Shown: positions 30,001-36,000, numbered from the stretch's first letter. The stretch: DNA of 64,000 bases from Anaerohalosphaeraceae bacterium (GCA_963675525.2 CAXXSL010000001.1:128001-192000); one strand, 5' to 3'. Made by a program: the numbers.

Positions 30001-33000
30001 CATTTGGAAAAGATCTTTGGATTTGCGCAAAAACGGCCCACATGCTGATTAATACGTTTTTAAAGCAGTTTGGATAAATCAGTGAGGAGATTCAAATTAT
30101 TTGGATATTGCTGTTTTTTCGGAATCTCTCAAAAATTTTCTTGTCAGTGATGTTTTTCAGTGCTAATCTGCTCGCAATCAAGCTCTTTTGAATAAAAATA
30201 GATTGAGTTTCAGGTTCGGACGAAACACGATAGTTTCGGCCGAATAACGAAATGGGAACACGGTGAAAATCCGTGACGGTCGCGCCGCTGTGTGTGTCCA
30301 TTGTGTTGATGTTTTAGCACAAATCTTTCCGGCATTGTCCCACTGTCCGATTTAAGGATGGGAAGGGGCCGGCAAAGTAGGATACGAGTCAGAAAACCTG
30401 CCTGAGGTTCAATATAGTTGTGATGCTCTCGCGATTGGAGTCATAGCGCAAGACCGAACTTCTCTGGTATCAGGGTTTCTTTCCGGGTTTGGTTTTTATG
30501 GATTTTTAAGCCGCTGTTTCTCGAATGAGAGCAGCGGCTTTTTTTATGTTATTTTTTTTAATCTGCGCAAGACAGATCAGAAAGGAGGCAGTTCAAAGAA
30601 AAACAAGAGATTTTTCCTCATTACGGGTTTGTATGTTATTTCCAATTCCAGTCCGGTGTAGGACTGGAAACCAAACCGGTAGATTGTCGCGGCAGGCAAG
30701 GGTCTGCCGCCAGCCGCGGCGTTCTGCCAAAACGAGAAATTGAATAATTTTGAAGTTGAAGGCTTCGGAGAGCAAGATGATGAAAAATGTTGTTACTGTA
30801 TTAGTCATGATTTTTGTGATAACAAGTGTGGCAAACGCGGCAAATTCGGCAAGCATTGTTTCCGGTTCACTGGTACAGGGGGATGTGGCCGCCGCAATGG
30901 AAAAAGGCAACGCCGCGTACCAGGGCGGTTATGGCGAGGAGACAAGTAATTTGAGCGATTGGAATTTTGATACGGGTGAATTTCCCTGGAGTCCCGGCAC
31001 CTATGGGGCGATCTCCACAACAAATAGCAATTTGAACGCTTATAGCGACGGTTGGGGCAGCTACGGAACAGCCACTGATACTGTCATTGGATTTGGCAAT
31101 GGCGGTTCCGTGACGCTTCAACTTGACAATGTAATATATGGTGTTGACGGCGAAAAAGAGTTCGGTTTGTTCACCGCCCAAATGCTGGACGCCTACGGTT
31201 CGGCTGGTAGTTTCTGGAACGGCAATATGGAAGCAGCTATTCTGGTCAGCCAAAACGGATCTGATTGGGTAACGTTGGACGGGACAAATGTTGCTCAGGA
31301 TTACACAGCCAGCAGCCATTATCTCAATACGCCGACCGTGGGATACAACTACGAGACCCTTGCAACAGCATGGGCTTACGGCACGGGCGCGACAATGGCA
31401 CAACTGAATGCGTTATCCGTTGCGGATTACACAACTCCAATGATTGATGACGATCTTTTTAATGGCAGCGGTGATAATGATGCTCGAGCCGCAATGGCTT
31501 TGGATTCGACGACAGCCGGTTATGATTCCGTTTTCGGCACCTCCGGCGGCGGGAACTGGTTTGATATTTCCTTCTGCGGTCTTGGCAGTGTTGAATATAT
31601 TCAATTAAATGGTATTAATTGTACTCCCGGTAAGGGAATCCGCCTTGATGCTGTTTTTACCACAGATGCTGCAGTGGTTCCTGAACCGGCGACAATGTTC
31701 CTGCTTGGATTGGGAAGTTTACTCGTTAGAACAAGAAGAAAATAAGGATACAAAAAACAGTGAACAGAGGCTGCTTTCTAAGCTGCCTCTGTTCTTTTAG
31801 TTTTTGTTAGGTTGCGATAATGTTTATGAAGTCGGCATTCTGGTTGCTGTTTCAGGTTTTAATTCTTGGCTCGTCTCTTTTTGCTGATCCGGGCGATTGG
31901 ACCCACTACGGGCACACGTCCAACCGAATTTCAATCGCGGTTGACGGTCCTGATACAATTGACCCTTCGACATTAGAGTGGCTTGCCTGGGAGGATCTTT
32001 CGTCGCCGGGATATTATCTTGATTTCATCGGTCTCAGCAGTCCGGTTGTTTATGACGGCAAGGTGTATGTATATGCAAAATATTATGATGAAAACGACAT
32101 TTACACAAACAACCAGATCGTCTGTTTCGATAGCGAAACCGGACAAGGCCTCTGGTATACTCCGATTGACAAGCGGATAGAGGTGCTGGGTTCGTTTTCC
32201 AGTCCCTGTGTGGACACGAAAAACGATACGGTGATTATCGGGTCCGGGTATAAAGTTTTTGCGATGGATGCGGATACGGGCGATCTTGTCTGGTCGGCTC
32301 AGTTGCAAAAGACCATCGTAAATGCCTCTGTTTGTTTGGCACTGGATATTGCTCCGGCTCGGGCGTTTATTACCGATTATGACGGAGGCGGCAGTCAAGG
32401 CCGGATTTATTGTATCAATCTTGATCCCAATGAGCCGACGGCCAATCCATACAATCCGGGGGATATTGTTTGGAGCGACGTTCTTGGCGGGACAAGCGGA
32501 AACTCGCCTGCCTATCAAGACGGCGTTGTTTATGTTGCAAGTATTACAGACCCTAATCATTGCTGGTCCTCAGGAAACCCAAATCCGACAGGGACAGTTT
32601 CTGCCTATGACGCGACAGCCGAACCCAATCCAAACAGATTATGGAGAACGACCGATTCACGTTTTGAGGGGTTTTTCGGAGGGGTTTGTGTGACGAAGGA
32701 GGGCTTTCTCTACGCGGCAAATTATGATTTTGGTTTTGAAGAAAACAACTCAGCATTGTGTAAGATAGGTTGCAGCGATGGTCGCGTGATATGGGAAACT
32801 CAGACGGAAAAAACAAAAAGCATGCCGATTGTTGTTGGTGATATGATCTATATTTGCGGCGGACTTGACGGCTATGGTTCAAGACCGAAACTTCAAGCTT
32901 TTCTAGATTTTGGCGATTCCGTACAATTGGTGTGGGAAACACCGTCTTCGTTTGCTGTCGGCGGATGGACGCATCAGCCCGTGTACGCGAATGACAAATT

Positions 33001-36000
33001 GTATATAGGCAAAACAGGTTCCGGCGGCTACGATTTTGGGCCCTGTACAGACCTTTATATTTTAGACACAAGATTGACGCCGCTGGATGCCGGATTTATT
33101 GTCGGCCATTATGTCGGTTGCGGCACCAGTCCCGCCGTGACCCATGACAGTCTCTATACAATCGGTTTTGATGGATTGCATAAATTTTTCCAACCTCTTG
33201 CTCTTAGCGATGTCAATCGTAGCGGAGGGGTTGATATTGTTGATTTACAGAGCTTTGCTATGGATTGGTTGTTTGATGGACCGGTTGGAGTCAAAAGGAC
33301 GGATTTTGATCTGGATGGAAATGTGAATCTTTCAGATTATGTTTTTCTGGCAAAGGAGTGGCTTCAATAATTTTATCCCGGAGGGATATTCTGAAAATGA
33401 GGAAAAAGATAAAGCATATACGAAGTGGATTTTCGCTGATGGAGCTACTTACAGTAATTTCTGTTATTGCTGTATTGATGGCTGTTTTGACTCCCTGTCT
33501 GGCAAGAGCAAAAAAACAAGCCAGTGCGGTTCTGTGCCTGAGTAACACCCATCAGCTTGGCATTGCGTTTTTGTGTTATGGATTAGACGATGACGATTAT
33601 GCGATGCCAAATTATGATCCGGCGACCAATACCTACTGGTGGGGCCAACTCGATACCTCCGGCATCGATCATACCAAGGGGTATGTCTGGCCCTATCTTC
33701 AAAGCGGTCTTAAGAAAAAAAGCGTTTTTGAATGTCCATCGCAAAAATTCGGTACTTATAGACTTCAAGGAAAGCCGCCGACATCACCGGAAAGCCCGAA
33801 TTGGATTACCAGTACCTATGGTTATAATGGATATTATTTATGTCCCCCCCGGAGTCCCTGGATGAATATTCGTCACCGACCGTGGAAAAAATTAGCTGAT
33901 GTTCCGTGTCCGGATCGGTTGATCGTTTTTGGTGATGCAATGTTAGACTGGGATATTTCTCCTGCTGCTTCTGATTTATCCAATACCGCTATGATCGATC
34001 CGCCATATATATTGAACGCCAGCGGGTCATCCTGGGTTGAGAATACATCTCCAACAACTTCTTTTAGGCACAATGAAAAAGCAAATATTCTTTTTGTTGA
34101 CGGGCATTGTGAAGGAATGGATATTAATGGAGGTACATACACGTCACCGGATGTCTTTATCGGATCCATTAAGGATGAGAATGCGCCTCACTATGTTCCG
34201 GATTGGGATTCCTGGGTAACGGCCGGTAATGGCAGAAGAAGGAAATAAATATTGAAATTTCCTGCTTCGTCGGTTATATTTTGCCGCATGGAGAATCAAG
34301 GGCTTTGTCACAGTTTGATATCGTATTTATCCTCGCATCTTTCAAAGGCATCCCATTTATTCTGGCCGGGGCGATGTCTTGTCTGTCAAAACAATATCAA
34401 TCCGGACGATGAGGGACTCTGTGTAGATTGCTGGCAAAATTTATCCAAATCGGTCGCGTCCGATTACTGTCGCAGTTGCGGCAGGGAGGTCAGCGCCTTT
34501 GGAATCGTCAACGGCCGGTGCGGATTTTGCCAGGATAAACATTTCCATTACGACGGTATTGTGCGGGCAGGTTTATATGAAACCACGTTTCGCTCGCTCA
34601 TTCTGGCGTTCAAATTCAGCGAAAAAACAGAGCTTTTGGCTCGGCTTGCAGCCATGCTGAAACAGACCGTTACCGCTGGCGGATTTTACGATGAAATTGA
34701 AATGGTCGTTCCGGTACCCCTGCACTGGCGGCGGAAACTTTGGCGGGGCTATAATCAGTCATATTTGCTGGCAAAACAGATCAAACTGAAAGATAAAGCC
34801 GTTTCGACGGATCTTGTCCGTATCCGTAACACGCAGCAGCAATGGGATTTAACGCCGCCCCAACGCCGCCGCAATGTCAAAGGGGCGTTTGCCGTGCGAA
34901 AGGGACATCCCTTTATCGGTAAAACAATTCTTCTGGTTGATGATATTTCCACCAGCGGCGCAACATTGAACGAGTGTGCTAAAATGCTTAAAGCCGCGGG
35001 GGCGAAGAAAGTCTATACCGCTGTTCTGGCGACGGCTTTTCATGATGATTGAGATTCAAATTTATATCCGATTTCACGGATCGTATGAATAAAACTGCGG
35101 TCTATTGGGTTTGATTGGGTTCGCGTGGCGCTATTGAAAACGGGGGTGTTGCGTCCGTTGGGGGGGTTGGATGCAGTCTATTGCATTTCTGTCGAGGGGG
35201 GTACTTGGGGGGTCAAATTGGGTTCGTTTTTTTGGGGTTGGCGGGGTCAAAAAAGGGGATTTTTTATTTTGTCAAAGCTAAATCGGCGATTCCGGGCTGG
35301 AAACGCCTTGCGCGAGTAGGGGGTACTTGGGGCCGAAATTGGCTTTGGATTGGGTTCGATTGGGTTCGATATTTGGTCGTTAGTCGCTGGTGAATCGTCG
35401 TTAGTGTCGTTAGTGTTGTTGAGAAACGCATTCATAGCGATTTCGTTAAGTTTGAAAATGGCTTCGTTTCGTTTTTTTTGTGTTTGTGCAGCGGGGGGGA
35501 TCGCTTCGTTGGTTTTGCGGACGGCCTGGATTTTACGGAGTTCGAGAATTGCCTTATACAGTCTGCGTTCGATCTGGCCCTGATAACGCAAAAGCCGTTC
35601 GAGGATGTTCGATTCCCTGAAATCTTCTATCGCAATACAGCCCAGTACGGTATTCGTGGGCGCATCTACGTTGGGGGACAGAAGGGCGGCGAGTTTGTCG
35701 ACGGCGGCGCTGAATTTTTTCGGCCGGTTTGTATGGAGAGCCGCATTCATGGTGTCGGAAAGATCACGCAGTTGGGACGGACGGATGCGGTGCTGCTGTT
35801 GGGCGTCGATACGGGCGACGACATCGCCTTTATTGCTGAGTACGTTCAATACGCCGGACTCCATCCATTCAGCGCGTTTGATGCGCCAGGTGAGGGCGAT
35901 GATGCGTTCGGCGAGCATCTGTTCGACGGGGCCGGCCGGAGCGAGGTCGATGAGCATTTTGGCGCTGAGGGTGTTGAATTCGGTGCGGTCCTCGTTGTCG

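Follow-up and report, generated by a model that had tools for sequence, protein, structure and literature searches.

The BtuH proteins of Bacteroides thetaiotaomicron (BtuH1, BtuH2, 7BIZ; the H domain of BtuG1/BtuGH, 8BLW) are exported lipoproteins with an N-terminal Cys and PKD domains that are encoded behind a cobalamin riboswitch, and more than 80% of the gut BtuH homologues lie in a btuB operon. PMC13616437 gives their Na/Ca site at the nucleotide-loop phosphate as Asn399, Glu406, Asp522, Ser582 and Glu584. BtuG, in turn, is a 7-bladed YncE-type β-propeller acting as the B12-binding lid of the receptor BtuB. In PVC bacteria, the jelly-roll proteins of the BtuJ/DUF4465 family (IPR027828; D5EK51 of Coraliomargarita and Pan of Mucisphaera calidilacus) are shown B12 binders, and IPR013424, which we take to be the PEP-CTERM entry, is present in 88/824 of them. 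The same bacteria code for DUF1559/H-X9-DG prepilin-like proteins (PF07596, TIGR04294), which combine an N-methylation site with the H-X9-DG motif, and in Akkermansia, another PVC bacterium, the pilin-like proteins of the MUL2 locus have been linked to the uptake of a substrate. The mostly non-subscription literature that we covered yielded no function for the H-X9-DG prepilins, no link of either PEP-CTERM or DUF4430 to a cobalamin riboswitch, none of DUF1559 to cobalamin or to pili of Planctomycetes, none of prepilins in Planctomycetes or pilins in Verrucomicrobia to a cobalamin riboswitch, and no work that joins cobalamin, BtuB and a riboswitch in Phycisphaerae; the BtuH literature gave no description of this protein outside gut Bacteroidota.

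Here, we consider a planctomycete locus in a window of 64,000 nucleotides (the whole stretch of DNA analysed), where three genes on one strand follow a cobalamin riboswitch (Table 1). We think it probable that this predicted B12-repressed cassette captures cobamides at the cell surface. Its first product, g00166, has BtuH as its best profile and structure match and, like it, is exported and encoded behind a cobalamin riboswitch; unlike the BtuH lipoproteins, it has neither the N-terminal Cys nor PKD domains and carries a PEP-CTERM anchor at its C-terminus, in a locus without btuB. It also differs from BtuJ/DUF4465 in lacking PF14717, which has no match in the genome. The second product, g00167, resembles BtuG as an exported β-propeller in a B12-regulated locus but has PQQ_2 and is closest to 8-bladed propellers, while its family carries either a dockerin-like or a PEP-CTERM tail and is accompanied by a pilin rather than a TonB receptor. 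The third shares the N-methylation site and the H-X9-DG motif with the DUF1559-like proteins, but its clade is tied to the cobalamin riboswitch and the propeller. The likeness to MUL2, which concerns a glycan substrate and different genes, is one of analogy.

Table 1. Features of the locus, in window coordinates
Feature	Position	Strand	Basis or score
Cobalamin riboswitch aptamer, RF00174	30195..30419	+	82.6 bits, E 7.8e-19
Hairpin 3′ of the aptamer, loop CGCGAU (30430-30435) complementary to L5	30420..30445	+	sequence, fold
Intrinsic terminator hairpin and U run (expression platform)	30508..30546	+	-22.7 kcal/mol, z -5.65
g00166: signal peptide, divergent BtuH-like jelly roll (putative; ~residues 22-298), PEP-CTERM anchor	30777..31745	+	profile and structure searches
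Stem-loop followed by U-rich run, between g00166 and g00167	31762..31794	+	-22.2 kcal/mol
g00167: signal peptide, PQQ/BamB/YxaL-type β-propeller (~23-460), dockerin-like tail	31820..33370	+	Pfam, structure search
Third gene: prepilin-type N-methylation/H-X9-DG (DUF1559-like) protein, propeller-specific clade	33397..34248	+	profile matches, tree
ComF-family gene, 3 nt downstream of the third gene	34252..35052	+	not part of the device

The riboswitch and its expression platform

The survey's finding had described a single cobalamin riboswitch in this genome and the presence of RF00174 throughout the family, and both statements stand: the match, which covers model positions 1-189 and exceeds the gathering threshold of 31.5 bits, is the only one in a genome that is 99.5% complete, and RF00174 was found in 41/41 family genomes. 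Loop L5 of the aptamer reads GUCGCG (30279-30284), and from its complementary loop the adjoining hairpin is the probable P13 kissing-loop partner of L5. A hexamer complementary to L5 is present in 17/35 riboswitch loci; a covariation test of L5 and L13 (own pairs 4.16, swapped pairs 4.21) is uninformative because L5 never varies. The terminator that follows has a folding energy reached by none of 200 shuffles, and an equivalent hairpin is found in all 35 riboswitch loci as against 1.8 expected. From this anatomy, we predict ligand-dependent repression, whereby the riboswitch with bound cobalamin would allow the terminator to form, and the three genes would be read when cobalamin is scarce. An antiterminator formed by pairing of the aptamer segment GCCGCUGU with the 3′ arm of the terminator fits this locus but was rejected as inconsistent across the 35 loci. 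A scan with promoter and terminator consensuses gave chance-level output and missed the terminator. The second stem-loop, in the gap that precedes g00167, may limit read-through into this gene and may set the level of g00166 above that of the genes behind it; a hairpin behind the first gene occurs in 22/28 loci, with 7.5 expected.

Products of the three genes and their relatives

The gene g00166 starts 357 nt behind the riboswitch and, as reported earlier, encodes a protein of 322 aa with a PEP-CTERM anchor (5.7e-6 at residues 301-322), beyond which Pfam detects no domain. Both PF07589 and TIGR02595 score above their cut-offs, and with a signal peptide, a hydrophobic stretch at the N-terminus, a PEP motif, a hydrophobic stretch and a basic tail, together with an exosortase in the genome (TIGR02602 above cut-off, 24182-26188), the protein has the make-up of a PEP-CTERM/exosortase substrate. 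It had been said to lack any detectable homologue; however, 78 other proteins match at E≤0.001 with 39-79% identity, while a class-level search with the family profile A1 (98/301 genomes) returned many anchor-only matches and is not a homologue count. Among the 22 loci of close relatives, six of which begin inside the gene, a same-strand riboswitch lies upstream in all 16 having upstream DNA. In the homologue P0075, the g00166 domain is fused to a pilin.

The fold of g00166, previously supposed to be undescribed, is by profile and model comparison a remote version of the BtuH-type jelly roll. Against PDB sequences, profile A1 has a sole match, at E 0.0087, to residues 437-520 of 8BLW chain B, a segment that falls within the BtuH domain of BtuG1 according to PMC10404256, and the wider profile A3, with bridging members added, matches the same domain at E 1.9e-9; neither matches a CBM. 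With an AF2 model (pLDDT 90.6), Foldseek ranks 8BLW_B and 7BIZ at the top, with no row at E≤0.001, and VIA-align gives 8BLW_B (Z 10.1) followed by 7BIZ (Z 9.5, tied with a CBM at Z 8.7), CBM32/discoidin folds coming just behind (Z 8.7-8.0). The alignment to BtuH covers about 153/277 residues, g00166 having insertions, at 13-17% identity. No match in PDB sequences was obtained by phmmer with g00166 alone or with one bridging protein (nor for the latter among plasmids), profile A6 recovered from them dockerins only and not BtuH, 7BIZ was matched by no sequence search with g00166 or its profiles, and no DUF4465 structure is among the 50 structural matches listed for the model. In the inferred register, and unlike BtuH, g00166 has Ala134 (Ala in 47/51) at the site aligned with Asn399 and Arg289 (Arg in 50/51) at that of Glu584, while Glu406 is kept as E152 (E in 35/51, D in 11/51). 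We regard g00166 as a member of a divergent BtuH subfamily with two putative metal-site residues replaced, in which, on this register, the Arg may take over the role of Na/Ca in contacting the phosphate of the nucleotide loop. We predict, with good though not full confidence, that g00166 binds corrinoid through this domain. PEP-CTERM-anchored corrinoid binders had been presented earlier as new; B12 binders with IPR013424 that are targeted to the cell exterior have already been proposed for DUF4465 in PMC12751083.

The propeller protein g00167 (516 aa) starts 74 nt behind g00166 and has PQQ_2 (9.8e-19) and Dockerin_1 (1e-3, below the Pfam cut-off), as claimed. Its portrayal as a BtuG counterpart fails at the level of family: 8-bladed YxaL/BamB/Rv3035 propellers head the structural ranking (Z 33-36; YxaL 35.8) versus BtuG2 (8PTF) at rank 40 (Z 21.4), and ESM Atlas returns generic PQQ_2/BamB clusters. 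A PQQ quinoprotein dehydrogenase was likewise considered and discarded (TIGR03075, 22.7 bits against a cut-off of 480). The family is tightly tied to cobalamin riboswitches, lying behind one in 17/21 genomes (10/10 order-level genomes and 7/11 beyond that set), and g00167 is a better candidate than g00166 for a new B12-linked protein. The two do not form the conserved unit they were taken for, the propeller being carried by 0/22 loci of close g00166 relatives; it travels with its own pilin clade. Apart from pilins, a propeller of this family is frequently the sole gene that follows the riboswitch.

The survey's finding recognized g00166 and g00167 but overlooked the third gene, 26 nt past g00167. 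Its product (P0003) matches PF07963 (22.2/21.2 bits), TIGR02532 (23.3/16.3) and TIGR04294 (19.2/19) and has no Pfam PF07596 (DUF1559) match, weak versions of which occur in the cassette pilins of several relatives. In a quick tree, the ten propeller-linked pilins constitute one clade (SH-aLRT 100) distinct from the genome's 12 H-X9-DG paralogues included in that tree, with 45-63% identity as compared to ≤29%, over comparable lengths, to 30 other cassette pilins. A complex prediction for propeller (23-460) and pilin (38-276) scored 0.01 against a mark of 0.32, which tells neither for nor against contact, and the correlation of propeller and pilin identities (rho 0.82, 16 pairs), in which shared ancestry is uncontrolled, was not used as contact evidence. 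Across the family, the pilin-like gene is the most constant part of the cassette (a prepilin/H-X9-DG protein in 28/31), and it stays while the first slots interchange BtuH-like (29), DUF4430-like (21) and BtuJ/DUF4465 (5) domains, as counted with profiles A3, A4 and A6 that were built from many of those proteins. The DUF4430-like call of A4 derives from ESM Atlas structure rows, and A4 found no meaningful match in PDB sequences. One family cassette continues into BtuF/C/D-type genes, and btuR lies inside one.

B12 demand, uptake and competing readings

Besides MetH-like and corrinoid proteins, the genome encodes B12 radical-SAM enzymes, and CbiC, CbiD and MetE had no match in it, in agreement with the earlier claim that corrin-ring synthesis is missing; its gene content marks the planctomycete as a putative B12 auxotroph. 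The reported B12 ABC transporter is present as a BtuFCD-like locus on contig C11, the only FecCD match. The "BtuB-like" receptors fared less well: four of the five scanned best match the TOL_0244 family and one a siderophore model, with 45-86 bits for TIGR01779 (BtuB) against a cut-off of 600. Since just one of three control genomes with matches passes this cut-off, a lower score is nevertheless compatible with BtuB. No riboswitch-linked BtuB was found in the genome, which has eight TonB-receptor and ten secretin matches, and no TonB receptor in the riboswitch locus. Of the 55 family riboswitches, 42 were examined and none precedes a TonB receptor; a TIGR01779 match is absent in 16/41 family genomes, including the propeller carrier G310 (97% complete), a count subject to genes missed with long queries and draft genomes. 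Perhaps, the cassette works without the usual outer-membrane B12 receptor.

Under surface capture, g00166 would be exported, anchored via exosortase/PEP-CTERM sorting, and grip the corrinoid with its computed BtuH-type jelly roll, while g00167 and the genetically linked pilin-like protein would act as a co-inherited module capturing or relaying B12. The cobamide would then be handed to a BtuF-like protein in the periplasm, pass through the genome's one BtuCD-like ABC transporter and be adenosylated by BtuR; it might cross the outer membrane either by way of a pilus and secretin or through a TonB receptor that is not regulated. This reading, which retains the survey's idea of a B12-controlled capture device of an auxotroph, is stronger because of the terminator platform, the auxotrophy markers and the families of known B12 binders that occupy this slot in relatives. 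Membership in a Btu operon is by itself no proof of binding, because cobalamin is bound by neither BtuL nor BtuK2 (PMC12751083). With this cassette, the surface-binder strategy of Bacteroides for B12 would reach planctomycetes in a form that has a different anchor and, it seems, no regulated BtuB. The cassette also connects the H-X9-DG prepilins, a large family that is still unexplained, with one defined small ligand whose switch is known, so that the function of these pilins can be tested directly. Two cheap binding tests arise, for the divergent BtuH subfamily and for the 8-bladed propeller family.

One variant of the capture cassette has the pilin-like protein build a pilus or pseudopilus that would pull the vitamin, or binders loaded with cobamide, through a secretin in place of BtuB/TonB. 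The constancy of the pilin, its clade tracking the propeller, the P0075 fusion, the riboswitches without TonB receptors, the genomes without TIGR01779 matches and the secretins point that way, but any of the TonB receptors could import B12 unregulated, a BtuB may be hidden below the cut-off, the absences come from long queries, draft genomes and a subset of the riboswitches, and the cassette has no pilus assembly gene; we rate this variant as possible, though on the unlikely side. Slightly more doubtful is a joint proposal that Phycisphaerae import cobamides without BtuB through a secretin route and a riboswitch-controlled H-X9-DG pilin that is dedicated to this ligand and matched to interchangeable surface binders, that g00167 is a new B12-binding class with its own cognate pilin clade, and that the Arg of the g00166 subfamily, not the BtuH metal pair, holds the nucleotide-loop phosphate.

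Other readings depart further from corrinoid capture by a BtuH-type domain. The cassette could be B12-repressed without binding corrinoids, serving as a CBM32-like lectin adhesin and pilus for attachment to B12 producers or particles, or as a cobalt scavenger, as the nearness of CBM32/discoidin folds, the changed metal-site residues and the attachment role proposed for pilin-like MUL2 loci of Akkermansiaceae (PMC13174399) might suggest. We find this improbable, because the same slot is filled in relatives by DUF4430-like domains and by DUF4465, whose B12 binding has been demonstrated (bioRxiv 10.1101/2025.08.21.671476), and because the sequence profiles match the BtuH domain of BtuG1 but not any CBM. 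A new B12-binding fold in g00166, forming with g00167 a planctomycete BtuH/BtuG pair, would agree with the empty Pfam result, the insertions and the propeller, but seems very improbable given that BtuH domains are the top matches, that hhalign joins A1 to the commoner cassette family (probability 99.0, E 2.4e-18), that BtuG2 ranks far below YxaL and that close g00166 relatives lack the propeller. Equally slight is the chance that the riboswitch governs g00166 alone, with propeller and pilin as separately expressed neighbours: the terminator-like hairpin behind g00166 speaks for it, but the propeller directly follows the riboswitch in 6/10 order-level genomes, with the pilin behind, and the intergenic gaps of our locus are short.

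In many family genomes, a ComF-family gene like the one beyond our third gene indicates where in the chromosome the cassette lies.

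The riboswitch and the genes behind it

As the survey's finding had it, the genome (99.5% complete) yields a single cobalamin riboswitch in a genome-wide search, with a full-length RF00174 aptamer. It is followed by a hairpin with a U run; every one of the 35 loci examined has an equivalent 100–190 nt beyond its aptamer, as against 1.8 loci expected from shuffles. The loop GUCGCG at 30279–30284 is complementary to CGCGAU at 30430–30435, as would be expected of an L5–L13 kissing loop; as L5 is invariant, a covariation test of this pairing is uninformative (own pairs 4.16, swapped 4.21). 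Given the hairpin, its conservation and the loop complement, the riboswitch is therefore likely a transcriptional off-switch. Three genes lie downstream with gaps of 357, 74 and 26 nt: g00166 has a PEP-CTERM anchor, g00167 encodes a PQQ_2 propeller that ends in a dockerin-like tail, and the third is a prepilin N-methylation/H-X9-DG gene, after which comes comF. The survey placed the first two genes correctly and omitted the third. The stem-loop between g00166 and g00167 suggests that the anchored binder is produced in excess over the genes downstream. The source labels of the homologues are Sedimentisphaerales and other Phycisphaerae.

Features of the window (positions in the window)
Feature	Position	Strand	Remarks
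Exported protein	20649–22871	+	740 aa; several dockerin-like repeats (GC-type dockerin match)
Exosortase	24182–26188	+	TIGR02602 above cut-off, residues 405–637; inside EPS cluster, 4 kb upstream of riboswitch
Cobalamin aptamer RF00174, full-length	30195–30419	+	Rfam, 82.6 bits, E 7.8e-19
Terminator hairpin and U run	30508–30540	+	Folding −22.7 kcal/mol, beats 200/200 shuffles
Stem-loop between g00166 and g00167	31762–31794	+	Counterparts 3′ of first gene in 22/28 loci vs 7.5 expected
Prepilin N-methylation/H-X9-DG gene	33397–34248	+	
ORFs downstream of comF	35247–40387		306, 491, 238 and 318 aa; no NCBIfam match
Transposase-like remnant	38312–38617		By eye
Acido-Lenti-1 RNA	40945–40989	+	42.2 bits
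tRNA	48729–48803	+	

The BtuH-like domain of g00166

g00166 had been thought to lack detectable homologues and to hold a B12-binding fold not yet described; we found 78 homologues at 39–79% identity, and its top profile and structure matches are BtuH domains. While a single-sequence search of the PDB gave no match, a 51-row profile matched one chain, 8BLW_B (residues 437–520, E 0.0087), and a 44-row profile with bridging relatives lowered the E-value for this chain to 1.9e-9. 8BLW is described as BtuB1G1, with a C-terminal BtuH domain on BtuG1 (PMC10404256). Further, the g00166 family and the commoner cassette family align with each other in hhalign (probability 99.0, 255 columns). With the AlphaFold2 model (pLDDT 90.6), the top Foldseek matches are 8BLW_B and 7BIZ (BtuH2 with B12), none at E<0.001; in VIA-align, these two score Z 10.1 (153 residues aligned, rmsd 3.3) and Z 9.5 (154, rmsd 3.8), respectively, with CBM32-type domains below both at Z 8.7 and lower. 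Against this relation count the score of 7BIZ, regarded as a tie with the best CBM, the lack of a 7BIZ match in any sequence search, and a search with profile A6 that gave no BtuH match. Nevertheless, the profile and model comparisons argue for g00166 being a divergent BtuH-like domain, so named rather than as a BtuH member because, unlike BtuH, it has neither a lipoprotein anchor nor a btuB neighborhood.

In BtuH2, the nucleotide-loop phosphate is held by a Na/Ca site of Asn399, Glu406, Asp522, Ser582 and Glu584, according to two reports (PMC13616437, PMC8941943). At the matching motifs, the commoner cassette family has Asn in 19/20, Glu or Asp in 19/20 and the late Glu in 17/20 sequences, and the g00166 family has Ala134 in 47/51, Glu152 in 35/51 (Asp in 11/51) and Arg289 in 50/51. 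Arg289 was placed at the Glu584 position by residue count from the point where the two aligned chains end (298 to 593), so that it stands in for the metal bridge is a hypothesis. The locus adds an Arg-type BtuH subfamily to the known parts, and we consider it quite probable that g00166 binds cobamide.

The g00166 relatives are tightly linked to B12. Loci of 22 close relatives were read, and all 16 with upstream DNA have a same-strand cobalamin riboswitch there, the other six starting inside the gene (four of these were scanned, with no riboswitch), and RF00174 is found in 19 of 20 loci among the best class-wide profile matches. Of these 22 loci, 10 have a same-strand pilin behind the gene and none has the propeller there, which speaks against the pairing of g00166 and g00167 proposed earlier. 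In one homologue (P0075), PEP-CTERM and then pilin follow in one frame.

A cassette with exchangeable slots

RF00174 is present in all 41 Anaerohalosphaeraceae genomes searched. Downstream DNA was read for 42 of the 55 family matches outside the genome under study, most of the other 13 being near contig ends. Of these 42, 31 head an exported-protein cassette, four precede nrdD (two with metE), three precede salvage-like genes (named by eye from their motifs), two precede a radical-SAM gene and two have too little DNA; none of the 42 has a TonB receptor behind it. A prepilin is in 28 of the 31 cassettes (of the rest, two stop at a contig break and one lacks it), as are a BtuH-like gene in 29, a small PEP-CTERM protein in 21, DUF4465 in five and a propeller in two, counts that rely on profiles built from many of the same proteins. 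One cassette (L093) runs on into periplasmic-binding, FecCD and ABC genes and another (L095) includes btuR. Slot contents differ among the three same-genus genomes read; hence, slots are swapped over short distances. What is conserved is the cassette as a whole, its slots being open to exchange. The one small PEP-CTERM protein examined is DUF4430-like by structure; DUF4430 is similar to the B12-binding domain of transcobalamin, and IPR013424 is the PEP-CTERM entry. DUF4465 proteins, including ones of Coraliomargarita and Mucisphaera, bind B12 according to a preprint (bioRxiv 10.1101/2025.08.21.671476), and IPR013424 is on 88 of 824 of them in another study (PMC12751083). The parts of the cassette are of known kinds; targeted searches found no such arrangement in the literature reached.

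In several single frames (P0013, P0029, P0033, P0034, P0035, L104:1973-3598, L106:1539-2966, L108:4569-7793), the PEP-CTERM unit is present two or three times, and every unit has a separate signal-like stretch; DUF4430-like and BtuH-like domains stand in tandem without an intervening stop. These frames, and P0075, may encode polyproteins cleaved by signal peptidase or exosortase. Two first-slot PEP-CTERM proteins (L091:6702-7703, L093:6804-7742) match no cassette profile, Pfam (anchor aside) or NCBIfam model and are candidates for further binder folds. A same-genus DUF4465 protein (L062:710-1843) has a C-terminal extension of ~130 aa and no PEP-CTERM. The riboswitches before nrdD, a class III ribonucleotide reductase, are second cobalamin riboswitches (L081–L084; metE next in two), and tblastn of this nrdD against the genome under study gave no match. 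At L085 (G249:C54) and L088 (G305:C27), divergent cobalamin riboswitches stand back-to-back, one before a salvage-like operon and the other before a radical SAM/SPASM gene.

The g00167 model (pLDDT 91.5, 102-row alignment) is nearest to YxaL, BamB and Rv3035 (Z 35.8–33.2) and BtuG2 ranks 40th (Z 21.4), so the suggested BtuG counterpart finds little favor. The propeller is present in 10 of 201 Sedimentisphaerales genomes, with an upstream riboswitch and a downstream pilin in all 10; in six of them it comes directly after the riboswitch and a PEP-CTERM protein is absent. In a 401-genome phylum sample, it recurs in 11 further genomes (five from one genus), with a riboswitch upstream in seven, three being cut at contig ends and one, a large multidomain form, lacking it. 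The window pilin is 45–63% identical to the nine other propeller-linked pilins (207–333 bits) as against at most 54 bits with 30 other cassette pilins and 36 genome paralogues; in a quick tree of 52 rows, all 10 group in a single clade (SH-aLRT 100), and 7 of the 11 distant genomes likewise have a pilin of this type behind the propeller. Thus, propeller and pilin travel as a module, and the window locus is a mosaic of this module and a g00166-type first gene, adding a propeller with its own pilin clade to the known parts. A capture or relay role for g00167 is slightly favored. Since BtuL and BtuK2 of Btu operons bind no cobalamin (PMC12751083), it may be a relay or scaffold. Two propeller homologues (L149, L159) have a PEP-CTERM end in place of the dockerin-like tail. 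It seems that either tail can stand in for the other, and P0014 points the same way for the domain of g00166.

B12 need and a possible route of uptake

The survey's B12 auxotroph is borne out by the markers: eight B12-binding-domain matches, including a MetH-like protein, a corrinoid protein and radical-SAM enzymes, and no genome match for CbiC, CbiD or MetE. Queries from a relative's salvage operon matched only btuR and a generic aminotransferase-like gene. At the sole FecCD locus, the best matches are BtuF, BtuC and a corrinoid ATPase, all under cut-off. TonB receptors amount to five barrels and eight plug matches; TOL_0244 is the best match for four of the five scanned and none is near the BtuB cut-off, which leaves the earlier label of BtuB-like receptors unconfirmed; none of the five loci has a riboswitch. 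No family genome of 41 passes that cut-off and 16 have no match at all, but only one of three matching controls passes it, so a BtuB may still be present. Ten secretin matches and the exosortase indicate that export machinery is on hand. We posit that B12 would repress the cassette, the binders would be displayed at the surface and cobamide would be handed over to BtuFCD; a pilus/secretin passage replacing BtuB is speculative and rather doubtful. A study of Akkermansiaceae proposes pilin-like loci for substrate acquisition (PMC13174399), a likeness to the cassette pilin that would be one of analogy only.

The exosortase is fused C-terminally to a sugar-nucleotidyltransferase-like and hexapeptide region. 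Pattern counts over the whole genome give ~56 PEP-CTERM-like and 17 dockerin-tailed frames. The stretch downstream of comF looks like a variable island.
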